A DNA stretch of 64,000 bases from a virus. Numbering within the stretch: position 1 is the first letter of the stretch; each line of letters begins with the position of its first letter. The stretch is from UHGV virus genome UHGV-2113617; one strand, written 5' to 3'. The notes under the pieces were generated by a model. That model did no database searches, was not told the origin of the DNA, and saw nothing but the letters and a program-made list of their open reading frames with translations. Of the stretch, positions 3,508 through 34,103 are shown piece by piece. Made by a program: the position numbers and the translations under genes.

Positions 3508-3537
3508 ATAATACCACAGTTTGAACTTCTTGTAAAC
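3508..3537 (-). promoter_or_regulatory. T4-type early promoter
   Basis: minus-strand GTTTAC, 18 bp, TATTAT. Confidence 0.55.
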
Positions 3538-3946: not shown

Positions 3947-4183
3947 CTATTCCTTACTAAGAGCAGCATTCAGCTTGTTAGTAATTTTATCCAGACGCTC
4001 ATTGAACTCGCTAGAAGATAGTCCTTTTTCTGGAGAAATTAAGCTAATCACGAAAAATATAGCAATAAAAGGAATAAGAAAAATAGCTCCAACTGCCATA
4101 AACAAAAAGAATGTTACGGTTGTAAGAAAATCAGCTAAACCTTTACGAAATTTATACATATTTACCCTTAATTGATTAACCAA
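3947..4183 (-). CDS. small membrane protein
   Basis: 78 aa with a long hydrophobic stretch. Confidence 0.5.
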   Translation of the reverse strand: MVNQLRVNMYKFRKGLADFLTTVTFFLFMAVGAIFLIPFIAIFFVISLISPEKGLSSSEFNERLDKITNKLNAALSKE

Positions 4184-4273
4184 GCATTGATAAGTACTAA
4201 ACTATACTGCGAATAAAATTCTGGACCAAAATGAAAAATCATATCATTTATAGTATCAATAATATAATTCAAT

Positions 4274-4744
4274 TTAATCATGTTTCCACACCCCATCGGT
4301 ATTTGACCAAAGTCGCTGATTATCTGATCCTCGCCACAGCTTTTTGGTCGGAAGATTTTTCTCATACTTCCCATCAATAATAACATCAACATATTTAAGC
4401 ATTTCTAGTTGTTTAATATCTTCAAATTTATATCCTGTCCACAACCAAATGCTTTTATTTGGATAAAGATTTTTTACCGTTTGAACAATGCAATGAACAA
4501 CATCTCGGTTATCAGGATAAAGAGGGTCTCCTCCAGTTATAGTTAATCCTTCTATATAATCATTATTCAAACATTCAATTAATTGTTCTAGTGTTTCACC
4601 AGTGAATGGAACGCCATTTCTAGCATTCCATGTTGATTTATTATAACACCCTTCACATTTATGCAAACACCCCGTAACGAAAAGAACGACCCTGCATCCA
4701 GGGCCATTCACAAAATCACAGGGATAAAATCTATCGTAATTCAT
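4274..4744 (-). CDS. nrdG: anaerobic RNR activating enzyme (radical SAM)
   Basis: 156 aa, CLHKCEGC = CxxxCxxC cluster motif; overlaps nrdD stop. Confidence 0.9.
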   Translation of the reverse strand: MNYDRFYPCDFVNGPGCRVVLFVTGCLHKCEGCYNKSTWNARNGVPFTGETLEQLIECLNNDYIEGLTITGGDPLYPDNRDVVHCIVQTVKNLYPNKSIWLWTGYKFEDIKQLEMLKYVDVIIDGKYEKNLPTKKLWRGSDNQRLWSNTDGVWKHD

Positions 4745-6558
4745 TGGTGTTTAACCCTATGCATGATTTCTTTATTTTTGCCAAGATTAAATCCGCGTTC
4801 GTTCGGATTTCCCAAATAACCACAAGTTCTTCTTATTGTGTTCATCTTTTTAGGATCAGTTTCTCCACAAATAGAACAAACAAATCCGTTTTCAGTAGGA
4901 GTCATTTCATGGGTACTTCCACATGTAAAACATTTATCTACTGGCATATTAACACCAAAATAATCTAAATGTTGTGCAGCATAATCCCATACAGCCTCAA
5001 GACCTTTTAGGTTATTTTTCATATCAGGAAGTTCAACATAAGAAATGTGACCACCTGTCGCAATGAAATGATATGGGGCTTCGCGAGAAATCTTTTCAAA
5101 CGGAGTAATATTTTCTTCTACTGAAACGTGGAAACTGTTAGTGTACCAGCCTTTATCGGTAACATCTTTTACACTTCCATATTTTTCGGTATCAAGTTTA
5201 CAGAAGCGATAGCACAGGTTTTCTGCAGGAGTAGAATACAAACTAAAAGCAAATCCGGTTCTTTCAGTCCATTGTTTAAGATGAGTATTCATTTTAGTTA
5301 AAATTTCTTGTCCAATATCACGACCGACAAGAATATTCAATTCGTGAATACCAATGTATCCTAGAGACACTGAACTTCTACCGTTTTTAAATAACTCAAT
5401 TATATCGTCATCAGGTTTAAGACGAACCCCGAATGCACCTTCTTGGTAAAGAATAGGAGCAACAGTAGCTTTAACTCCTTTTAAGGAACTAATTCTACAC
5501 ATCAATGCTTCAAAACATAAATCCATTCGTTCGTTGAACAATTCGGCAAATTTCTGTTCATTGAACTGTGTTCCAATATAAGAATCTAACGCAATACGAG
5601 GAAGATTCAGTGTTACAACACCAAGATTATTACGTCCATCAAGAATTTCATTACCAGTCGAATCTTTCCATACGCCCAAGAAACTACGACAACCCATTGG
5701 AGAAACAGGAATAGATGAACCAGTGATAGCTTTATTGTTCTTAGCCGAAATGATGTCAGGATACATTCTTTTACTTGCACACTCTAGAGCAAGCTGTTTA
5801 ATATCATAGTTCGGATCGTCTTTATAAAGATTAACACCTTCTTCAACGAACATAACAAGTTTAGGGAAAATAGGAGTTATCCCATCACGACCGAGACCTT
5901 TAATACGATTTTTCAGAATTGCTTTCTGAATCATTCGTTCAGTCCAGTCAGTTCCCGTACCAAATGTAATTGTTACAAAAGGCGTCTGTCCGTTTGAACT
6001 AAAGAGAGTATTTACTTCATATTCATAAGCTTGGAACGCATCGTATACGTCTTTTTCTGTTTTAGATTGGGCATAATTCAATGCATCTGCGATTTGCCAT
6101 TTTTCCGCGTCCTCAATATGTTTCGCATAGGTGCGTTTAACATAAGGAGAAAGTACTTTATCTACATTCGCAAAAGTCGTTCCGCCATATTGATGAGAAG
6201 CAACCTGTGCAGTAATTTGTGCCATAATTGCAGTAGCAACGCCGATTGATTTAGGGGTTTCAATCTGTGCATTACCGAGCTTAAATCCGTTCTCAAGCAT
6301 TCCTTTTAAATCTACTAAACAACAATTAGTAAATGGAAGAGCAGGGGAATAATCAATATCGTGGAAATGGATAATTCCGCTTTCATGTGCTTTCATAATA
6401 AAAGACGGGACCATATTTTTGGCAATGTGTTTAGACACAATACCAGCCATAAGGTCCCGTTGAGTTGGAAAAACACGAGAATCTTTATTAGCATTCTCGT
6501 TTAAAAGGTCTTTATTAGTTTTATGAATTAATCCTTCAATTTCTTTTTCAATTGTCAT
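4741..6558 (-). CDS. nrdD: anaerobic ribonucleoside-triphosphate reductase, uninterrupted
   Basis: 605 aa, C-terminal glycyl-radical motif RTCGYLG and CxxC...CxxC zinc site; no intron in the reading frame. Confidence 0.95.
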   Translation of the reverse strand: MTIEKEIEGLIHKTNKDLLNENANKDSRVFPTQRDLMAGIVSKHIAKNMVPSFIMKAHESGIIHFHDIDYSPALPFTNCCLVDLKGMLENGFKLGNAQIETPKSIGVATAIMAQITAQVASHQYGGTTFANVDKVLSPYVKRTYAKHIEDAEKWQIADALNYAQSKTEKDVYDAFQAYEYEVNTLFSSNGQTPFVTITFGTGTDWTERMIQKAILKNRIKGLGRDGITPIFPKLVMFVEEGVNLYKDDPNYDIKQLALECASKRMYPDIISAKNNKAITGSSIPVSPMGCRSFLGVWKDSTGNEILDGRNNLGVVTLNLPRIALDSYIGTQFNEQKFAELFNERMDLCFEALMCRISSLKGVKATVAPILYQEGAFGVRLKPDDDIIELFKNGRSSVSLGYIGIHELNILVGRDIGQEILTKMNTHLKQWTERTGFAFSLYSTPAENLCYRFCKLDTEKYGSVKDVTDKGWYTNSFHVSVEENITPFEKISREAPYHFIATGGHISYVELPDMKNNLKGLEAVWDYAAQHLDYFGVNMPVDKCFTCGSTHEMTPTENGFVCSICGETDPKKMNTIRRTCGYLGNPNERGFNLGKNKEIMHRVKHQ

Positions 6559-7028
6559 TTTAAACTCTTTCTAAGCTGCTTCTTAAATGAAGCTATTAAT
6601 TGTGTTTTAGTGTCAGATTCATTATATTCAAATCCTCTTTGAAGCATCTCAGCCATCATTTCCTCTTTTCCTAAACGAGAAAATTCCTTTGATTTATCTC
6701 CAACAAAGTTAGGGTGAATATTATTTTGGGTGTAATCGGATTTTAAATAAGTAAGTAAATTTTCTAACCATTCAAGATAATCAACACCTTGTCCCTTTAA
6801 GCCAGAACGATTGAATTTATGCTTCATTTGACCTTCTGCAGCATTACAGAGATTACATAGCAACCCACGTACCTTTCCTGCTTTTGGTCCATTTAATTCA
6901 TGGTCATGGTCAAGGTGATTAGCTTGAACATCAGGATTTAGTTCTCGTTGGCAAATTAAGCATTTACCGTTTTGTGCATTATAAAATTTTTGTTTTTCTT
7001 CTTTGTATAATTTGCCAGTCAATAACAT
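6555..7028 (-). CDS. 49: endonuclease VII (Holliday junction resolvase)
   Basis: 157 aa, MLLTGKLYKEEKQKF..., CxxC and HLDHDH motifs; matches T4 gp49 as recalled. Confidence 0.85.
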   Translation of the reverse strand: MLLTGKLYKEEKQKFYNAQNGKCLICQRELNPDVQANHLDHDHELNGPKAGKVRGLLCNLCNAAEGQMKHKFNRSGLKGQGVDYLEWLENLLTYLKSDYTQNNIHPNFVGDKSKEFSRLGKEEMMAEMLQRGFEYNESDTKTQLIASFKKQLRKSLK

Positions 7029-7246
7029 AATAAAACCCTTACCTTGAATAGATAAGGGTATTTATTATTTTCAAGTATTGTAAAACATTCGATGCAATCG
7101 CTTATATTGTCGAATCATCTTTTTAGTAGGACGAGAATAAGTTCCTACACAAGTGGTCATATTAGGATCAGTAGGACTTCCTTTAATAAAAAGTTTCCAG
7201 ACTTTACCACCATTTAGCTTTTCAGTATAAACCAATTCAGTTTTCA

Positions 7247-7711
7247 TTAAAATGCTCGGTCAGAAAAAGAAATTTGAGTTTCAAGCCATTCAATATATTC
7301 TGCCGCAGCTTGCATCAAATTTCCTTCATAACCATCGTTGTTTTCTTGCGCAGCTAATTTAGCTAATGCATATGAAATGCGTTCACCTTGAAAAGCGGCT
7401 TTAGGTTTATGAATAGCTTGATCAACTCGTTCTACGACTTCTTCAATTTCGCCATTTTCTACTGATTCAGTATTCCACAAGCACCAATACGTAATTGGCT
7501 TATCGTAAATGTTAATAATCTTTCCATCAGAAAGTTCAATTTCAATAATTCCAGTATCAGGTTCTATATCATCTTCACATTCTTTTACAAGTTCACGAAC
7601 TTTAAAGACAATACCTGCACTAAGTTCAGGCCAGTAATTACACAGCCCTTTATCAGCACGATTAATTCTAAACCACTTATCTACTGTAATCATGTCCCAT
7701 CTCCATATCAA
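7247..7711 (-). CDS. hypothetical protein (occupies the T4 pin position)
   Basis: 154-aa ORF; identity to pin not verified. Confidence 0.5.
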   Translation of the reverse strand: MIWRWDMITVDKWFRINRADKGLCNYWPELSAGIVFKVRELVKECEDDIEPDTGIIEIELSDGKIINIYDKPITYWCLWNTESVENGEIEEVVERVDQAIHKPKAAFQGERISYALAKLAAQENNDGYEGNLMQAAAEYIEWLETQISFSDRAF

Positions 7712-7816
7712 TTATGTCATTTATTGTAGGTTCATTATATACTGTTTCTTCATCAGTGTAAACCGGTTCTTCCGGCTCTGGCTCTACTGTTTCCCATCTA
7801 GCCGCCCACCAGGGTT

Positions 7817-8137
7817 TTATAGCGTAATCCATTCTCGTATTGTCTGAGTTACTACACGTTCACGGGGCTCGACTAGTTCAACAGTCGGAACTGCATAATA
7901 CCAGTCAGAATGATAAGAACCTGAACGGCATTCATTTACGGAAACATGTACATTATGTTTTGGACTAAAATAAACACACTGACGATATTGACATTTACCG
8001 TCTTGCACCCAGTCTTCTATTTCGACAGGTTTAAGATAATCGGAAAAATCGAAATCATAGTTTTCTGAAAATGCATCATGGTCTTCAATGATTTCACTCA
8101 GAACTGCATCAACATCTAATTTATTTTCAATAGTCAT
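7817..8137 (-). CDS. hypothetical protein
   Basis: 106-aa ORF. Confidence 0.5.
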   Translation of the reverse strand: MTIENKLDVDAVLSEIIEDHDAFSENYDFDFSDYLKPVEIEDWVQDGKCQYRQCVYFSPKHNVHVSVNECRSGSYHSDWYYAVPTVELVEPRERVVTQTIREWITL

Positions 8138-8147
8138 TTGTCACCAC

Positions 8148-8357
8148 TTAATTTCGCAATTTATTAAGTTCTTCATAATCAATCCAGGATTCTAATCCTG
8201 ATGGCAAATCAGATTCAATTTCCCAAAGAAGCTCTTCAATTTTCTGAAGACGATCTAATTCTTCAGCTGGAATAGTAACCATTGACGGAGTTCTTGATAC
8301 ACTAATATCGTAAATCATATTTACCCCAGTTTGACCATACAATCGCCATATTTCCAT
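8148..8357 (-). CDS. hypothetical protein
   Basis: 69-aa ORF. Confidence 0.4.
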   Translation of the reverse strand: MEIWRLYGQTGVNMIYDISVSRTPSMVTIPAEELDRLQKIEELLWEIESDLPSGLESWIDYEELNKLRN

Positions 8358-8536
8358 TTAGAAATAGACTTTTCACCGTTAGAATAATAAACTTCGAGTT
8401 TAGCACGATTATTTTTAATTTGAATAACCTTTGCTGTCATCAAAGTTCCATATCCATAATAAACTGCAACCTCATCACCTACATATACCGCGCTTCCGCG
8501 GTAGTCATGGATATAATCAGTTCCTTCAAGCATCAT
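8321..8536 (-). CDS. hypothetical protein
   Basis: 71-aa ORF. Confidence 0.4.
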   Translation of the reverse strand: MMLEGTDYIHDYRGSAVYVGDEVAVYYGYGTLMTAKVIQIKNNRAKLEVYYSNGEKSISKWKYGDCMVKLG

Positions 8537-8796
8537 TTAAAGTATTCCCGCAATTGGTCAAATCCACCAATATGACTTCCGTCAGGAGCAAATACCTGAG
8601 GCATCGTCAATCCGATTTGAGTATCACGACCCAGTTTAGTCAGAAGCTCAGCGATTTTCTCATCATCAAAAACACCTTTTTCCGGCATAATGTTGATAAA
8701 TTCAAACGGCTGTTTCTTCACAGTCAAAAGACGTTTTGCATTATCGCAATACACACATTTGTGGATGTTGCTATCATAACCATATACTTTAAACAT
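8533..8796 (-). CDS. nrdC: phage thioredoxin/glutaredoxin
   Basis: 87 aa, active site CVYC; matches T4 NrdC as recalled. Confidence 0.85.
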   Translation of the reverse strand: MFKVYGYDSNIHKCVYCDNAKRLLTVKKQPFEFINIMPEKGVFDDEKIAELLTKLGRDTQIGLTMPQVFAPDGSHIGGFDQLREYFK

Positions 8797-8797
8797 A

Positions 8798-9019
8798 TTA
8801 TTCCTTAATTCCTAGTACTTGTTTAAAAGTCTCGTCGTAATCAAGACTTTGGCCCGTTTGTTCTTTATGTTTGTATATAATATCACTTACTTCTGATAGC
8901 ATATTTTTATATGAACGAGTTAAAGCAGATTTAAGCACGCTGTATCTATCAGGAAATTTACCATGTTCATTATAATAAGCTATTGCTAATTCACGGACTG
9001 CCTTTTCAGCAGTCTCCAT
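8798..9019 (-). CDS. hypothetical protein
   Basis: 73-aa ORF. Confidence 0.5.
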
Positions 9020-9028
9020 ATATATTCT

Positions 9029-9346
9029 TTACGCTTGGTCATTTTCTTCTCGGTTAAATCGGTGTTTGCAATGACGACATTTATATTCAAGCTCTGGTTT
9101 ACGCCAGTTAATCAATTGGACCTGTTCAGTACCACATTTTGGGCAGTTCGGAACATTCTTAGAAGCCCTTTCGCGGCGTTCAACCATAACCATAATGGCA
9201 TCCCAAGCAGGAGGTTTAAAGTCTAGATCGTCACAGCCATGAATCTTTCCACGCATTTCCAGATCGTCTTCTTCACCAGCCATAATGATTTTAATTAGAC
9301 TGGAATTACTTGAAGCTGCAATATCTTCTAATAGACGCTTTTTCAT
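9029..9346 (-). CDS. zinc-ribbon protein
   Basis: 105 aa with CPKCG...CRHCKH. Confidence 0.55.
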   Translation of the reverse strand: MKKRLLEDIAASSNSSLIKIIMAGEEDDLEMRGKIHGCDDLDFKPPAWDAIMVMVERRERASKNVPNCPKCGTEQVQLINWRKPELEYKCRHCKHRFNREENDQA

Positions 9347-10272
9347 TTCAATACCTCAATAGCATTACGTAAACCATTTGCTTTTGCATTAAGAGCTTTT
9401 AACAATTTGGTATGTTCGGCAATCTGGACTTCAACTTCAATCAAACGAGCATTGAGATATTCACGTTCTTCGCTCAAGTTATCAATCTTTTCTACTTTAG
9501 GTTCTTTTACAACTGGCTTATATGTATTAGGGTTCTTCAGTTTAATTAGAATGCGTGAACTGTATAACATTGAACCATTATCTTCGGTTTCGTCATACAT
9601 TTCCACTACGTCCATCATCTCCACCATCGTGCAGAGTTTATAAGACAACGAACGAATAGTTTTGTTGTGCTTATTAATTTCTCTAGCTGTCATGGTGCCG
9701 AGATTACGTGAGTAATAATAAGGAACCTGGATATTAATTAATACTGATGAACCACCTGGCTTGTGTGTTACTTCATCAGCAATAACCCAGTCCTTAACAT
9801 GAACTGTATTTGTACGGTCATCGCCGGCGGTAAATAGTTTACGAGCATGCTTAAAAAGCATATTCACTTGGTCATTGAATTGACAAGTGAATTTATCAGC
9901 AAATTTAGTTTCAGGAATGGTAGATAACCAATCAGCCAAATGGGTCTTTTTAACATCGTTAACAATAGTAAATTCAACCAAATCGGTTATAGATGTCGCA
10001 GATTTAATGAAGCTCGGCTTCATAAAGTTTTTAATGTTATCACTAGCTACAGTAGAAGATAACAGACGAGAACGTTTAAACCATTGAAGCAAATTGCCTA
10101 ACGAATGAGAATAAGCGTTTTGAGTATCTTTACAGATATGATTTTCCTGGCCAACATATTGAAAGAAATCACGAAGAATATTATTGATTACTGCTCTGTG
10201 CCCAATCTGATAATTACGGTGTTTAGTAATAAGACTATCAAAATAATCAATATAATGTTTACGAGTTTTCAT
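9343..10272 (-). CDS. coiled-coil paralog family member A
   Basis: 309 aa, MKTRKHY start, C-terminal ~50-aa heptad-rich tail; shares motifs with the next three genes. Confidence 0.7.
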   Translation of the reverse strand: MKTRKHYIDYFDSLITKHRNYQIGHRAVINNILRDFFQYVGQENHICKDTQNAYSHSLGNLLQWFKRSRLLSSTVASDNIKNFMKPSFIKSATSITDLVEFTIVNDVKKTHLADWLSTIPETKFADKFTCQFNDQVNMLFKHARKLFTAGDDRTNTVHVKDWVIADEVTHKPGGSSVLINIQVPYYYSRNLGTMTAREINKHNKTIRSLSYKLCTMVEMMDVVEMYDETEDNGSMLYSSRILIKLKNPNTYKPVVKEPKVEKIDNLSEEREYLNARLIEVEVQIAEHTKLLKALNAKANGLRNAIEVLK

Positions 10273-14681: not shown

Positions 14682-14782
14682 CACTACCTCCATTCACCAG
14701 TTTAATTCTAGTCATCTTTTTAATGGCAGTCCATATAATCTATTTCTGAACTGCCTTTTTGTCATAGAAGTCCTCTTATGAA

Positions 14783-15751
14783 TTATTTCAGAAGAGTAAC
14801 CTCAGCAATTTCTTCCCAACCGTTTTTGTCGGTCATAATAAAGTCAGCAAGATAAAGAGCAGTACGCAGTGAAACATTGCGTAAACGATTAACATTAACT
14901 TTCATCCATGATAATGCTTTATAAGTTTCTTCATCAGAAAGACCGCGCTTTTGCATCATGTCAGTTGAAAGAATAACATCTTCAACCCTGACCATAATTT
15001 CTTCATTAGTGTGAACACCCAAATCTAAATAAACTGAGCGGGACACTAATGCTTGTAAATGTGGAGCAAGTTTAGTACCACGGTCTAATTCGCGGTCAAT
15101 GTCAACGTTTGTGATAAAAACAATCGTTCCTTTAAATTCAAACTCACGGTCAATGCCTTTTTCTTCTAAGTAAGAAGATGCAGTGCTCCAGCAGACTTTA
15201 CGGGTCTCTCCAGTGTCCAGAGCAGCTTTTAGAAGATTAAGAATGTCCATATCAGAGAAAACATCCACATCATCAATCAAAAGGACAGAATTCTCTTCAC
15301 GATTATTCCAAAGCTGTTCATAAAGACCAATACCAGAGATTTTACCGTTAATGCTTTTATATTCAATGTATCCATTATCATTTGCTTTATTTAAAGCTTT
15401 ATCTAAAGAATACGTTTTACCAATACCTGCTGCGCCAGAGATAATCAATGAACGAATATTTCCATTAATAATACCATTCGTCATCATTCCCATAACATTA
15501 AATCTTTTATTAATGCGGGTTTTCATATCTTCATATGATTCTTTAACTTCTTCAACTTTTACACCATCATATGAAATATCTGATTTGTAAACCCAAACAC
15601 CGCGACGTTTACCGTCAATTTCAACAAAAACTTTACCATCTCCTTGTGCATCTACCGGAGCATTATCTGGGAACCATTCGCCTAAGAGCTCAAAAGTTCC
15701 AGAGATTTCTTTACCGAAGTAGATACCCTTATTGATAGTTACAGTTTTCAT
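14783..15751 (-). CDS. P-loop ATPase (AAA-like)
   Basis: 322 aa; Walker A GAAGIGKT, Walker B LLIDDVD. Confidence 0.7.
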   Translation of the reverse strand: MKTVTINKGIYFGKEISGTFELLGEWFPDNAPVDAQGDGKVFVEIDGKRRGVWVYKSDISYDGVKVEEVKESYEDMKTRINKRFNVMGMMTNGIINGNIRSLIISGAAGIGKTYSLDKALNKANDNGYIEYKSINGKISGIGLYEQLWNNREENSVLLIDDVDVFSDMDILNLLKAALDTGETRKVCWSTASSYLEEKGIDREFEFKGTIVFITNVDIDRELDRGTKLAPHLQALVSRSVYLDLGVHTNEEIMVRVEDVILSTDMMQKRGLSDEETYKALSWMKVNVNRLRNVSLRTALYLADFIMTDKNGWEEIAEVTLLK

Positions 15752-15787
15752 TTTATTCTCCAATTTCACATTTGTTTTGATAGGGTA

Positions 15788-15817
15788 ATAGTATCACACT
15801 ACTACCCTACTGTAAAC
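15788..15817 (-). promoter_or_regulatory. T4-type early promoter
   Basis: GTTTAC, 18 bp, TACTAT. Confidence 0.6.
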
Positions 15818-15820
15818 AAT

Positions 15821-16084
15821 TTATTTTAATGTTCGCCAAATTTTTACTGCTTCGCGACGAGATACTTCTACAGCTCCAAGTTCTACGGCTTTTTGGCGGT
15901 GGCGCGCGTGTAAGTCATAATGTTTAATGCGTTTATCTTGAAACCAAGAGCGTTTCATTCCTATTGCTTCTGCCATTTCATGAAGCTCTTCAATATCTCC
16001 ATCAGTGAACATATGACAATTTTTAGTTGGATGACCGCGAAGTTTCCATCCATGATTCATTAAAACATCTACGTAAACTGTCAT
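15821..16084 (-). CDS. small conserved protein (tentatively DUF4031-like)
   Basis: 87 aa, MTVYVD...CHM...HYDLHARHR; family assignment is from memory. Confidence 0.5.
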   Translation of the reverse strand: MTVYVDVLMNHGWKLRGHPTKNCHMFTDGDIEELHEMAEAIGMKRSWFQDKRIKHYDLHARHRQKAVELGAVEVSRREAVKIWRTLK

Positions 16085-16230
16085 TGATTCTGCTCCAAAT
16101 ATGTTTCTATAATTTTCTGAGCGAGATAAACTGCGTTATCTTCAGTTGCATCTTCTAAGAAATTTTCAAAACAAGCTGAAATCTCTTCTGTGTCAATCAA
16201 CTTTTTTACTTCAATTAACGTAGTTTTCAT
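16081..16230 (-). CDS. hypothetical small acidic protein
   Basis: 49 aa from MKTTLIEV; the longer ORF-track N-terminus MVLYNYQL is promoter read-through. Confidence 0.4.
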   Translation of the reverse strand: MKTTLIEVKKLIDTEEISACFENFLEDATEDNAVYLAQKIIETYLEQNQ

Positions 16231-16266
16231 TTTATTCCCCCAAATCCACATCAGTTGATAGTTGTA

Positions 16267-16296
16267 TAGTACCATAAAGCTTTATGCTTGTAAACA
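16267..16296 (-). promoter_or_regulatory. T4-type early promoter
   Basis: GTTTAC, 18 bp, TACTAT plus conserved leader. Confidence 0.6.
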
Positions 16297-16323
16297 ACTT
16301 TGTGACGTCATTTTAAACAAAAA

Positions 16324-16341
16324 GGGAGACCGAAGGCTCCC
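16324..16341 (-). terminator. rho-independent terminator
   Basis: GGGAGCC-TTCG-GTCTCCC hairpin followed by TTTTT on minus strand. Confidence 0.6.
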
Positions 16342-16343
16342 TA

Positions 16344-17357
16344 TCATTTATAATAACTTCGGTGGTTTTCAAGATATACCTCTTCAACGAACTTGTCCCA
16401 GAACTTCATGTCTACCTTATCAGGCATACCGTTCTTAGCTGCCTGGATGGCTAGGACTTCAACCAAATCAACAGTATCTTCAAGAAGTTCTTGAACTTCT
16501 TTAAATGGTAATTCACCGGCTTTAATCAGCTTAATGATAGAGGCTTCGCGCAATGGGAACGCCAAATCACCTGTTTGGTAGATTTCCATCAATTGATACC
16601 CTGCGCGATAAGCATGACTCAGAGCTTTCCAGTCAATACCTTCATTAGCTTCAGCCTTACGAGCACGTTCACCATATTCCGCATCGAGCTTATTCAGAGA
16701 TTGCTTGAGCTCGATTAAAGACAAGGTGGTTTGGTACTTACGTCCAAGAACAGTATAGAACGTTTGAGGACCTGTTTTCTCGTGGTTATGGAATACCCAT
16801 TCACAGAACTCGTTTTCAGGAAGCCGATGTTTAATATCTACAATTTTAGTACGACGTTGTCCTTGTGTTCCATCTTCTCGGTAATCAACCCACTGATCGG
16901 GGATTTGATTAACTACTTTCAATACATTACGCAATGCAGCCAAACGAGAACCCTTAACACCATATTTAGAAGCTTGCTTGCGCACATATCCTAAATAGGC
17001 TTTCATGTTAGTTGTATAAAACCGTGAACGATTGTCTTGGATAAATTTCCATACATCAGGCAAATCAGATTTAACTACTAGTTCAGGCGGAGTGTGAAGC
17101 ATATCCAATGCTACAGTTTCACCGTCTGCTGCTAATTTAAAGAAATACTTAAGACTGTATAGTTCATGGTCAATATCATCTTTAGTGTTTTTAGATGATG
17201 TGTTGTTAGTGTTTTTACTCATATGCTCTTTAACATTTCCGATAAGAATATCGCGAGCAGGAGGAACAAAGATTTCTTTAAAATCTACATCAGATTCTGG
17301 AGTAGAAGTTCCATAAAGATGACTACCAAAATAGCTTTTCATTACTGTTTTCATCAT
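16344..17357 (-). CDS. Pol-beta-superfamily nucleotidyltransferase-fold protein
   Basis: 337 aa; N-terminal GSHLYGTSTPESDVD (GS...DxD) plus downstream ALDML acidic strand. Confidence 0.6.
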   Translation of the reverse strand: MMKTVMKSYFGSHLYGTSTPESDVDFKEIFVPPARDILIGNVKEHMSKNTNNTSSKNTKDDIDHELYSLKYFFKLAADGETVALDMLHTPPELVVKSDLPDVWKFIQDNRSRFYTTNMKAYLGYVRKQASKYGVKGSRLAALRNVLKVVNQIPDQWVDYREDGTQGQRRTKIVDIKHRLPENEFCEWVFHNHEKTGPQTFYTVLGRKYQTTLSLIELKQSLNKLDAEYGERARKAEANEGIDWKALSHAYRAGYQLMEIYQTGDLAFPLREASIIKLIKAGELPFKEVQELLEDTVDLVEVLAIQAAKNGMPDKVDMKFWDKFVEEVYLENHRSYYK

Positions 17358-17815
17358 TCAGCCTTATATTCAATAACAGGACATACTTTAGCTTTACGAG
17401 CTTTTAAAAATTCGACGATAATAGATTTCTTGGGTTGAATAGGAGGTAAACCTTTATACGCCCTATCAATATTTTCTACATGTAAAGCATAATCCTTTTT
17501 CCATTTATAATCTTTATATTTTTCATGCAGTTGTGCAGGAATAACAAATGAACCAATAATAAGTAAAACAAGCAAAATGGCAAGTACAAATGCTGATGGA
17601 ATAAGAGTCCATAAACTACCAAAAATAAGCCATTTCTGTATGATTTCTGCACAGATGATAGTTAGACCTGCGAGTATAGTACATCCGAAAAAAGAAACGA
17701 AAAATGTAGGAATAACAATAGACCAAAAATACGCGCATAGTGTCTTAGGCCGTTTCCATTCATCATTAAACATTTTGAATAATTTATAGTGCCAAGAGCT
17801 TTCATTAATAATCAT
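17354..17815 (-). CDS. multi-pass membrane protein
   Basis: 153 aa with about four hydrophobic segments; stop overlaps NTase start. Confidence 0.6.
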   Translation of the reverse strand: MIINESSWHYKLFKMFNDEWKRPKTLCAYFWSIVIPTFFVSFFGCTILAGLTIICAEIIQKWLIFGSLWTLIPSAFVLAILLVLLIIGSFVIPAQLHEKYKDYKWKKDYALHVENIDRAYKGLPPIQPKKSIIVEFLKARKAKVCPVIEYKAE

Positions 17816-17817
17816 AA

Positions 17818-18339
17818 TTATCCTTTCATTGAAGGTGTAACAGTTGTTAAATACTTAATCATAGCTTCAGATTCTGATTTTGATAATGAAATTTCTTCAT
17901 TGTTTTGACGAATAGAAATAAAATCCGGATGACGGTCACGGCCAGCTTTCAAAACACACATATAAGTATCAGTTTCATCTTCAATATTTGAAATGATTGA
18001 AGCAGTTCCACATGAATGCGGTTTTTGATAAATCAATACGGCTTTTCTTCCACCGTTTGACTGTTCATAAACTTTTAACACATCAAACAAATCACTTCTT
18101 TTATCAATAGCTAAGATGTTGTTTTCATCTTCAATGTTAAATCCTTCGGATACTTCATAAAGTGTCACCCATAAATCGCCTATATCGATAGTAGCATTTA
18201 CTTTTCCATGACTTTCAAGAGCATGACAAATTTTCTTAATTTCGTCATAACTCATTTTAATATTATCATCTCCTTGAATAAGGAAGATGTCATTTTTAAA
18301 TTCAACACGAATTAAACCACTTTCACTTGAAATAAACAT
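17818..18339 (-). CDS. hypothetical protein, paralog of next gene
   Basis: 173 aa; shares GFNIE.E and C-terminal IRQ...YL..V.P.M with the 183-aa neighbour. Confidence 0.6.
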   Translation of the reverse strand: MFISSESGLIRVEFKNDIFLIQGDDNIKMSYDEIKKICHALESHGKVNATIDIGDLWVTLYEVSEGFNIEDENNILAIDKRSDLFDVLKVYEQSNGGRKAVLIYQKPHSCGTASIISNIEDETDTYMCVLKAGRDRHPDFISIRQNNEEISLSKSESEAMIKYLTTVTPSMKG

Positions 18340-18345
18340 ATTTCC

Positions 18346-18897
18346 TCACTTTGAAATCATAGTTGGAATGACAGAATCAAGATAAGTCTTTAATAAAACA
18401 GCTTCTTCTTTGTTTAATACAACAACATTAACATCATTTACCGATTGACGAATAGTTAAGACATCTCCCTCTTCATAGCATTTTGATACATTTAAAACAG
18501 TTTCATAATTTTGATTACAAGCGTTAGTAATAATAGCATTGCAATTTTTAAACCATTTTAAACCATGTTTTCTTTCATTAGAATAATAGAAATATTTAAT
18601 CTTAGCTATAAAATTATCCCAATTATTAATTGATAAGCATATTGACTCGCTTTCAATATTAAATCCTGGGCATAAAGAATAAAAATGAATTTTATGCTCA
18701 TCATTAATGCTTACAATTTTATCAGTGTATGGTTTTTCAATTTGGGTTAAATGAATAATTTCGCTAGGCGTAAAATATAGCATATCGTCTTCTTGCGTCA
18801 AACGATACATATTATTTACTTTTTCTATAGCCAATTCACCAAAAAGTGAACTAACTTCTAGTACTAATCGTTTCATATTAATCCTTTTTATTGGCAT
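18346..18897 (-). CDS. hypothetical protein, paralog of previous gene
   Basis: 183 aa. Confidence 0.6.
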   Translation of the reverse strand: MPIKRINMKRLVLEVSSLFGELAIEKVNNMYRLTQEDDMLYFTPSEIIHLTQIEKPYTDKIVSINDEHKIHFYSLCPGFNIESESICLSINNWDNFIAKIKYFYYSNERKHGLKWFKNCNAIITNACNQNYETVLNVSKCYEEGDVLTIRQSVNDVNVVVLNKEEAVLLKTYLDSVIPTMISK

Positions 18898-32744: not shown

Positions 32745-32821
32745 TGGTCGAGGCAGAAGGATTCTAACCTTCAACCAACGGATTAGAAATCCGTTGCTCT
32801 ATACAATTGAGCTATGCCCCG
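32745..32821 (-). tRNA. tRNA-Arg (anticodon TCT)
   Basis: hand-folded cloverleaf: acceptor CGGGGCA/TGCCTCG, anticodon loop TTTCTAA, T-arm GAAGG-TTAGAAT-CCTTC, encoded CCA; ends +/-2 nt. Confidence 0.8.
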
Positions 32822-32824
32822 TAA

Positions 32825-33490
32825 TTAAAATTTCATTTTTCGACCTTTAAACCATCCTTCTGGAATTGGGTCAGTTTTCTTAATACGTTTAGAAACTTTT
32901 TCATCTAATGAATGAATCCACATCATACCAAATTGAGAATTCTTTTCACCTTGTTGGTGTTTATTTCTGGCGTGAGATTCTTTCATTTTATTAATAGTTT
33001 CAGGAGTATGGGTCTTACCCAAGAAAGATTTAGTATTTAAAAATTTCTCTCTATACTTAGGATTATCCCAAAGCTGTTTAAACCTTTCTGAACCCATTTT
33101 ACGATATTTTTCTTTAAGGTCTGGGTCGTTCTCAAATCTGGTTTTAAAAGCGGCAGCTCCTTTTAAGGAAGCTTCTTTCTTTTTATCCAAATATTCTTTA
33201 GTGTTTAAATGGTCCCAACCACCTTCACCACCTAATTTCAAATTATAAACATCAGGGCGCTTTAAAAACTCTTCAGTCACAATATTCTTTTCTGACTCAA
33301 ACATAGAGGTTTTATCGTCAAAGAACTCTAATATTTCTTTAGAAAAATTTTCTATACCATACTTGTCTTGGGCTCTTTTTAATAATTTACCAGAACCCAT
33401 ATATCCATCATCTAAATTTTCGGTAGAATGAGCGCCTATGTAGATTTTATTATTAATTTTATTTGTTATTTTATAAATGTAATGGAACAT
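32825..33490 (-). CDS. segB: GIY-YIG homing endonuclease
   Basis: 221 aa, MFHYIYKITNKINNKIYIGAH motif; embedded in tRNA cluster as in T4. Confidence 0.8.
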   Translation of the reverse strand: MFHYIYKITNKINNKIYIGAHSTENLDDGYMGSGKLLKRAQDKYGIENFSKEILEFFDDKTSMFESEKNIVTEEFLKRPDVYNLKLGGEGGWDHLNTKEYLDKKKEASLKGAAAFKTRFENDPDLKEKYRKMGSERFKQLWDNPKYREKFLNTKSFLGKTHTPETINKMKESHARNKHQQGEKNSQFGMMWIHSLDEKVSKRIKKTDPIPEGWFKGRKMKF

Positions 33491-33531
33491 AAATATCTCC
33501 TATTTCTAAGAGTATTTATGTTCTCAAAATA

Positions 33532-33603
33532 TGGCCCTGGGTGGAATTGAACCACCATCTGGCGATTATGAGTCGCTTGCTTGAACCTTCCAGCTACAGG
33601 GCC
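33532..33603 (-). tRNA. tRNA-Ile (anticodon CAT, presumably lysidine-modified)
   Basis: acceptor GGCCCTG/CAGGGCC, anticodon loop CTCATAA, T-arm GGTGG-TTCAATT-CCACC. Confidence 0.75.
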
Positions 33604-33609
33604 TTGATA

Positions 33610-33682
33610 TGCTGATTGACGGAATCGAACCGCCGACGTCCTCATTACAAGTGAGTTGCTCTACCTACTGAGCTAAATCAGC
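33610..33682 (-). tRNA. tRNA-Thr (anticodon TGT)
   Basis: acceptor GCTGATT/AATCAGC, anticodon loop CTTGTAA. Confidence 0.8.
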
Positions 33683-33689
33683 GAAATTA

Positions 33690-33776
33690 CGGAGGCGATA
33701 GGATTTGAACCTATGAGTCGCCGGAGCGACTGCCGGTTTTCAAGACCGGTGCATTAAACCACTCTGCCACGCCTCC
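33690..33776 (-). tRNA. tRNA-Ser (anticodon TGA)
   Basis: acceptor GGAGGCG/CGCCTCC, anticodon loop CTTGAAA, long variable arm. Confidence 0.8.
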
Positions 33777-33778
33777 AG

Positions 33779-33852
33779 TCTCCGCGGCAGGATTTGAACC
33801 TGCGACATTCTGCTCCCAAAGCAGACGCTCTACCAAACTGAGCTACACGGAG
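33779..33852 (-). tRNA. tRNA-Pro (anticodon TGG)
   Basis: acceptor CTCCGTG/CGCGGAG, anticodon loop TTTGGGA. Confidence 0.8.
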
Positions 33853-33864
33853 TAAATTAAATTT

Positions 33865-33936
<72 letters not shown>

Positions 33937-33942
33937 AAACTT

Positions 33943-34029
33943 TGGTACGAGAAGTGGGACTCGAACCCACAAGGAAATCATTCCGCAGCATTTTAAGTGC
34001 TGTGCCTTTACCAATTTGACCATTCTCGC
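33943..34029 (-). tRNA. tRNA-Leu (anticodon TAA)
   Basis: anticodon loop CTTAAAA, long variable arm, encoded CCA. Confidence 0.75.
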
Positions 34030-34030
34030 G

Positions 34031-34103
34031 CTGGGAATAAAGGACTTGAACCTTTGCATCTAGCAGTCAAAGTGCTATGCCTTACCAACTTGGCTAATTC
34101 CCA
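34031..34103 (-). tRNA. tRNA-Gln (anticodon TTG)
   Basis: acceptor TGGGAAT/ATTCCCA, anticodon loop CTTTGAC. Confidence 0.8.

Follow-up and report, generated by a model that had tools for sequence, protein, structure and literature searches.

The stretch analysed here (hereafter the window) comprises 64,000 nt of one strand of UHGV virus genome UHGV-2113617. Its minus strand carries a gene (nt 16344–17357) for a 337 amino acid (aa) protein that is identified as the orthologue of NrdC.11 of phage T4, a Pol-beta nucleotidyltransferase (NTase) of the RlaP family (PF10127). The active site of this protein is conserved, and homologues in bacteria and some phages are found among genes for RNA repair. 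We infer, with moderate confidence, that NrdC.11 would act as a template-independent RNA 3'-end nucleotidyltransferase that complements the Pnkp/Rnl1 tRNA repair of the phage. The locus as such holds a known family in an ordinary T4-type gene neighbourhood.

Family and active site of the NrdC.11 orthologue

The region around the gene (nt 14700–17900) is 99.9% identical to Escherichia phage ZCEC14. Of the 762 phage records that it matches, nearly all belong to T4-like phages (Tequatrovirus and relatives), and the window is assigned to a T4-like phage (Tequatrovirus). The 337-aa protein matches the Pfam family RlaP ('RNA repair pathway DNA polymerase beta family') over residues 7–136, with 50.1 bits against a cutoff of 23 (E = 3.8e-13), and phrog_388, 'nucleotidyltransferase' (E = 6e-132). 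Judged by these profile scores, the family assignment is far beyond chance, and PF10127 is precomputed on 120 of 120 NTase homologues among the matches listed. The NTase family is large (3523 clusters at 50% identity for E ≤ 0.001, and 871 for E ≤ 1e-30), and 1518 records in the phage collection carry the gene. The study that named RlaP is reportedly that of Burroughs & Aravind from 2016.

The assignment to NrdC.11 follows the T4 protein (NP_049709.1, T4p095, 'nucleotidyltransferase'), which has 86% amino-acid identity to the window NTase, the same length and an identical N-terminal catalytic half. The T4 gene also sits between nrdC.10 and the mobD/mobD.1 region, as does that of the window. 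It differs in having the homing endonuclease gene mobD upstream and no membrane gene there, and in lacking the cassette of a 49-aa open reading frame (ORF) and a DUF4031 gene that lies downstream in the window (see below). Most database records give the NTase as 336 aa, starting at the second ATG (nt 17354). The nucleotidyltransferase annotation goes back to Nolan et al. (2006), who assigned nrdC.11 to the nucleotidyltransferases of COG3541 and linked nrdC.10 with AAA ATPases (PMC1524935); its placement in Pfam RlaP and its naming in a 2025 preprint were also known beforehand. Many GenBank/UniRef records nevertheless label the orthologues of NrdC.11 and NrdC.10 'thioredoxin', the ZCEC14 record gives the NTase as a 'putative HNH homing endonuclease', and MobD.x ORFs elsewhere carry the label 'molybdopterin-guanine dinucleotide biosynthesis protein MobD'. 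These labels are annotation errors that have spread from the gene names nrdC.x and mobD.x.

A sequence-only reading of this DNA had proposed a Pol-beta-superfamily nucleotidyltransferase, and the Pfam match, the conserved active site and a structural model (below) all bear this out. The GS...DxD motif on which that proposal drew is present, although its spacing is GS-x10-DVD (G11, S12, D23, D25) and not x9 as first given. When the NTase was aligned with 137 diverse representatives (34–53% identity), G11 proved invariant, and S12, D23, D25, D61, D63 and D85 were at least 90% conserved. The same level is reached in the C-terminal half by Y124, Q128, K131, Y132, G136, Y228, G229, R231, D242, W243, K244, H248, R251, P268, K279 and G281. 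The Pol-beta active site is read from this alignment as intact and conserved.

To identify the third acidic residue, the NTase profile was compared with one built from canonical full-length RlaP proteins of bacterial loci (15 sequences); residues 2–91 align (probability 94.8%, E = 4.9e-8). The third metal ligand or catalytic acid is probably D63, because this residue aligns with the invariant Asp (D82) of the RlaP 'LDxNGWD' motif, opens a beta-strand (residues 62–68) in the model, and is kept in T4 NrdC.11, which has N at position 61. The Asp of 'ALDML' (D85), which had been taken to mark an acidic strand, lies instead within a predicted helix (residues 81–87) and aligns with an invariant Glu of canonical RlaP.

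An AlphaFold2 model built on the 137-representative alignment (predicted local distance difference test, pLDDT, 95; predicted template modelling score, pTM, 0.85) has an N-terminal alpha/beta NTase domain, helices at residues 119–150, a beta-rich insert (155–209) and a C-terminal helical bundle (214–336). Within the latter, K244-x3-H248-x2-R251...P268 is in register with K161-x3-Y165-x2-R168...P184 of RlaP, while hhalign on the sliced C-terminal domains gave only E ~0.1. The best Foldseek match to the model has E ~5e-3, a template modelling (TM) score below 0.4 and 14% identity; the matches include 3c18, kanamycin NTase and Hailong HalB. These represent the minimal-NTase and HEPN-like helical-domain classes, and the matches are weak and generic to minimal NTases, so that no solved structure can be called close. 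CD-NTase, cGAS, OAS and CCA-adding enzymes are absent from the Foldseek matches listed, and the similarity to CD-NTase, OAS or CCA-adding families that the sequence-only reading had wanted checked was seen neither there nor with Pfam or PADLOC. Sequence and profile searches of the PDB, in a copy without the PfRlaP crystal structure, returned nothing at E < 0.79, and PADLOC and NCBIfam gave only sub-threshold matches confined to a 17-residue core motif.

Differences from the T4 protein are concentrated at one end. Thirty-three of the 46 substitutions fall in residues ~250–325, within the C-terminal helical domain, and the nucleotide identity to T4 is 62–80% for these residues and 85–94% over the initial 600 nt of the gene. 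At the very end, ~10 codons are again identical to T4. The region concerned corresponds to nt 16344–16610 (the C-terminal ~85 codons). Alleles with at least 90% identity to that of the window occur in only 14 of the 1518 phage records carrying the NTase, while the neighbouring ATPase is 99% identical to that of T4. An exchange of alleles at the level of domains may account for the mosaic, as may diversifying selection acting on what is presumed to be the substrate-binding domain. That the C-terminal domain of NrdC.11 appears to be a mosaic hot-spot between closely related phages is a small addition of the current study.

RlaP activities and the gene context of NrdC.11 homologues

RlaP is, according to Iyer et al. 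(2021), the NTase found most often in jumbo phages; these authors predicted that phage RlaPs put back nucleotides that RloC and similar nucleases have removed, ahead of ligation (PMC7824862). Carruthers, Fatma and Huang (bioRxiv, December 2025; 10.64898/2025.12.29.696909) have since described two Pseudomonas enzymes, PfRlaP and PaRlaP, which add 1–2 nucleoside monophosphates (NMPs) to RNA 3'-OH ends, prefer Mn2+ and are inactive on DNA and protein. These enzymes favour the broken anticodon-loop end of a cleaved-tRNA mimic, and a tRNA that lacks one nucleotide partly regains its aminoacylation through them. PfRlaP labels many E. coli RNAs with little nucleoside triphosphate (NTP) specificity (10.64898/2025.12.29.696909). 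The solved RlaP structure consists of an NTase domain at the N-terminus followed by a helical C-terminal domain (10.64898/2025.12.29.696909), an arrangement that the NrdC.11 model resembles; the Pol-beta core of GS, DxD and a third Asp is common to both.

Relatives of the window NTase were sought in one genome per prokaryotic species. Of 156 found, 80 loci (34–53% identity) were kept, mostly from Desulfobacterales, Nitrospirota and Alphaproteobacteria; their neighbouring genes were clustered and the identities then confirmed with Pfam. A canonical full-length RlaP paralogue (E = 4e-73) is present in 16 of the 80 loci, mostly directly downstream of the NrdC.11-like gene. Pnkp with kinase, phosphatase and ligase domains is found in six, typically directly upstream, Hen1 in four, and RtcB in seven bacterial as well as two viral loci. 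Taken together, at least one of these four genes lies no further than 5 kb away in 24 of the 80 bacterial loci. When the 149 nearest bacterial neighbours (≤822 bp) are counted by Pfam family, the list is headed by RlaP (15), PNKP_ligase (5), AAA_33 (5) and Metallophos (4), the last two being the kinase and phosphatase domains of the confirmed Pnkp, and includes T4-type RNA ligase 1 (twice), Ro60/TROVE (twice) and RtcA (once).

The order Hen1 – Pnkp – NrdC.11-like – RlaP is at least partly kept in several alphaproteobacterial loci, and all four genes are present in L137. Examples of such arrangements among the bacterial set (L083–L162) are L137 (nt 4088–9799), L155 (nt 5465–7990) and L117 (nt 8001–9777). 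The tandem arrangement of an NrdC.11-like gene and canonical RlaP in one repair operon suggests that the two have non-redundant roles. A second small addition made here is that the NrdC.11 clade itself, beyond canonical RlaP, is found in bacterial Pnkp/Hen1 and RtcB loci, often in tandem with canonical RlaP.

Distant viral loci carry genes for RtcB, Thg1 and CCA-adding-type PolyA_pol within 5 kb of the NTase; a motif search of these loci located two CCA-adding-like genes and did not locate the Thg1 gene. In three distant T4-like phages with an NTase of ~50% identity (L040 nt 5627–6004, L048 nt 5615–6007, L053 nt 5606–6004), a gene for a 'Phage ProQ C-terminal-like domain' (PF24203), related to an RNA chaperone, has a stop overlapping the NTase start. 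This RNA-linked gene occupies the place that the membrane gene has in the window. Closer to the window, the complete genome of vB_EcoM_P8, which is 99.4% identical over the region, encodes RNA ligase 1 and polynucleotide kinase PseT. Taken as a whole, these gene contexts support a putative role of the NrdC.11 clade in the repair of RNA ends.

Neighbouring genes in the window

The G+C content is ~35%, and the minus strand carries all genes between nt 14783 and 17815. Immediately 5' of the NTase gene is one for a 153-aa protein (nt 17354–17815; phrog_944, E = 1.3e-49). It is a multi-pass membrane protein, as had been read from the sequence, with a continuous hydrophobic block (residues ~25–98) and a basic C-terminal tail. 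The overlap between its stop and the NTase start had also been recognized; the junction is ATGATG, and the TGA stop overlaps either candidate NTase start. The homologues of the membrane protein are proteins of T4-like phages only, annotated at most as 'signal-peptide domain' or 'membrane protein', and a comparison with PDB chain sequences, including Hailong HalA, gave no match.

Whether the two genes form a conserved pair was surveyed in 80 viral loci (NTase identity 39–89%). A homologue of the membrane protein is detectable in 41 of them and abuts the NTase in only 12, all from the closest genera. Other enterobacterial and Acinetobacter T4-like phages have the membrane gene 350–1700 bp upstream of the NTase with other ORFs between. 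It is missing in T4 and in one further locus, whose corresponding site is taken by the HNH homing endonuclease gene mobD, and in all viral loci at or below ~53% NTase identity, Acinetobacter phages excepted. Neither the membrane protein nor the ATPase discussed below is found near the NrdC.11-like gene in any of the 80 bacterial loci. Over the whole survey, the pairing whose conservation the sequence-only reading had wanted checked is largely not conserved. Across the viral loci, no fewer than 24 families supply the gene immediately upstream of the NTase, and the NTase start overlaps that gene by 4 nt in 39 of the 80, irrespective of its identity. The membrane protein occurs in 861 phage records compared with 1518 for the NTase. 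Its family is restricted to T4-like phages, and truncated forms are frequent, T2 having one of them.

An overlap of this kind is usual for the gene packing of T4-type genomes: 35 of 106 adjacent same-strand ORF pairs in the window overlap. With overlaps so generic, translational coupling was rejected as evidence of a partnership between the two proteins. The membrane gene is regarded as a lineage-specific upstream neighbour and not an obligate partner. Its product is co-transcribed and translationally coupled with the NTase only as the chance upstream gene in this lineage, and is not needed to explain the NTase. Their transcription unit appears to be closed by a G+C-rich hairpin resembling an intrinsic terminator (GGGAGCCTTCGGTCTCCC followed by a T run; nt 16323–16342, minus strand), directly 3' of the NTase stop. 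Immediately upstream of the membrane gene are two tandem paralogues of the T4 y05I/MobD.1-like 'putative transcription factor' (PF24449 and PF24448; nt 17818–18339 and 18346–18897), where T4 has a single mobD.1.

Downstream of the hairpin, a T4-early-type promoter (GTTTACA-N14-TGGTACTAT; nt 16266–16295, minus strand) would drive a 49-aa ORF (nt 16081–16230, minus strand; phrog_6888) and a gene for an 87-aa DUF4031 protein (nt 15821–16084, minus strand; PF13223, E = 2.5e-21). The two are coupled, the stop of the ORF overlapping the DUF4031 start (ATGA), and the ORF is annotated as a 150-bp coding sequence in vB_EcoM_P8. Where one small conserved protein had been described earlier, there are in fact two small genes. 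A second promoter of this type (nt 15788–15817, minus strand) would drive nrdC.10. Both were found by pattern match. The pattern GTTTACA-N14-TGNTACTAT, with at most one mismatch, has 8 copies in the window, all on the minus strand, against 0.01 expected by chance, and both promoters are judged from this excess to be genuine; the downstream genes thus stand behind their own early promoters, as had been supposed. The eight copies span nt 3508–35029 and mark early transcription units over the first 35 kb of the window. A T4-type cluster of eight tRNA genes (Arg-TCT, Met/Ile-CAT, Thr-TGT, Ser-TGA, Pro-TGG, Gly-TCC, Leu-TAA and Gln-TTG) is located at nt 32745–34103 on the minus strand.

The cassette of 49-aa ORF, DUF4031 gene and early promoter (nt 15821–16295) lies between nrdC.11 and nrdC.10, where T4 has ~115 bp. 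In three loci (L032, L033 and L036), the cassette proteins are 92–94% identical to those of the window, while the flanking NTase is 67–68% and the ATPase 73–74% identical; in other phages the cassette is found ~3–4 kb further downstream. By this pattern it behaves like a laterally mobile cassette. The literature offered nothing useful on DUF4031.

The orthologue of NrdC.10 (nt 14783–15751, minus strand, with its ATG at 15751) is the 322-aa ATPase with Walker A GAAGIGKT and Walker B LLIDDVD that had been recognized from the sequence. In addition to both Walker motifs it has an N-terminal beta-rich domain and an AAA+ alpha/beta core with a helical lid, and is a real P-loop/AAA+ protein, of a generic kind, with its own promoter and separately transcribed. 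Its structure and a fold search indicated no specific function. The ATPase gene is downstream of the NTase in 36 of the 80 viral loci, is more than 6 kb away in Aeromonas-type phages having both genes, and in the window is separated from the NTase by the terminator and the two-gene cassette. A conserved, functional linkage of NTase and ATPase was considered and rejected on the grounds of this viral distribution and because the ATPase is never near the bacterial homologues; NrdC.10 is not needed to explain the NTase.

Candidate functions and a proposed role in tRNA repair

If NrdC.11 acts in tRNA repair, host anticodon nucleases of the RloC type would cut and trim a tRNA, which is the likely substrate. 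The two-metal site (D23, D25 and probably D63) would add one or a few nucleotides, untemplated, at the broken RNA 3'-OH, and PseT (polynucleotide kinase-phosphatase) and RNA ligase 1 would then reseal a full-length, functional tRNA. The logic is that of the T4 Pnkp (PseT)/Rnl1 pathway directed against PrrC and RloC, in which phage enzymes heal and seal host-cut tRNA. Both partner enzymes are encoded by the near-identical vB_EcoM_P8, and a nucleotide-restoring step before ligation is what has been proposed for RlaP. NrdC.11 is a proposed member of this pathway, and its gene is distant from pseT and rnlA.

Several points weigh against a repair role of this kind. Significant profile-profile homology to canonical RlaP is limited to the NTase core (residues 2–91), and NrdC.11 is ~70 aa longer than the Pseudomonas enzymes and has the extra beta-rich insert at residues 155–209. 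The RlaP preprint marks T4 NrdC.11 as 'of unknown function' and places it in cluster 5 of the PF10127 similarity network, whereas the Pseudomonas RlaPs are in cluster 1a (10.64898/2025.12.29.696909). No repair genes are seen near the NrdC.11-like gene in 56 of the 80 bacterial loci, many of which are on short contigs, and where canonical RlaP is adjacent, its presence suggests that the NrdC.11-like protein is non-redundant and possibly of different activity. In the phage, NrdC.11 is not adjacent to a ligase; in vB_EcoM_P8, nrdC.11 and the genes pseT and rnlA are roughly 80 kb apart. Finally, T4 grown in the laboratory can lose the nrdC.11–mobD.3 segment (PMC9825161), and this dispensability fits an accessory counter-defence role.

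The same family and active-site evidence would equally suit an enzyme that tails RNA 3' ends without repair, independently of Pnkp and RNA ligase, whether for decay marking, for blocking 3' exonucleases or for upkeep of tRNA 3' ends. The many RNAs labelled by PfRlaP with little NTP specificity, the distance of nrdC.11 from ligase genes in T4-like phages, and the phage's own cluster of eight tRNA genes are in keeping with such an activity. It is nevertheless considered rather unlikely, as the genes found repeatedly near the NTase gene in bacteria and some phages are specifically those for end healing and sealing (Pnkp, Hen1, RtcB, RNA ligase 1 and RtcA), and the acceptor end is less favoured by PfRlaP than the broken anticodon-loop end. 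Transfer of NMPs to a protein or small molecule, in the manner of MNT antitoxins acting on HEPN toxins or of kanamycin/lincosamide nucleotidyltransferases, for instance as AMPylation of a host toxin, is improbable. The MntA profile of NCBIfam scores only 15.9 bits against a cutoff of 60, over residues 9–26 with the 17-residue core motif alone, and characterised RlaPs leave proteins unlabelled. The conserved motif is K-x3-H-x2-R and not the R-x4-6-H of HEPN, no HEPN gene is adjacent to the NTase, and the gene context points to RNA repair.

The sequence-only reading had favoured a signalling or anti-signalling module, in which the NTase would make or modify a nucleotide signal together with the coupled membrane protein, for example against CBASS, Pycsar or Thoeris. 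CD-NTases, cGAS and OAS do share the Pol-beta superfamily and GS...DxD chemistry with the NTase, but the window protein has no match to CD-NTase, SMODS, OAS or Mab-21 in Pfam or PADLOC, its fold matches are those generic to minimal NTases (TM below 0.4, 14% identity), and the locus offers no conserved effector partner. Direct pairing with the membrane gene is restricted to 12 of the 80 viral loci, MobD taking its place in T4; the membrane gene is truncated in T2 and others, and neither distant phages nor any of the 80 bacterial loci have it; gene overlaps of this kind are generic; the bacterial context is one of RNA repair; and in sequence the membrane protein resembles neither HalA nor any PDB chain. 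The module is thus not supported, and we rate it very unlikely. A more particular form of pairing, specific to the Tequatrovirus/Mosigvirus lineage, would have NrdC.11 and the overlapping membrane protein resemble the Hailong HalB–HalA system, with the NTase making short oligonucleotides. These would either gate the membrane protein or stand in for the decoy DNA of the host HalB, and in this way keep a host HalA-type channel closed. HalB as the best structural match, the shared transcription unit, the unique beta-rich insert and the fast-evolving C-terminal domain point that way. Against this, HalB is only 14% identical and gave no match in the PDB by single sequence or profile, the membrane protein has no sequence resemblance to HalA, the pairing is not conserved, and Hailong is a bacterial defence system and not a phage early gene; this idea, too, we regard as very unlikely.

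A role of NrdC.11 in tRNA repair would bear on the contest between T4-like phages and the anticodon nucleases of their hosts. When nucleases of the RloC type cut out the wobble nucleotide, the classic repair by T4 Pnkp and Rnl1 should fail. The counter-move would be a phage enzyme that replaces the missing nucleotide, and NrdC.11 is the obvious choice for it, an idea that already exists in print as a prediction.

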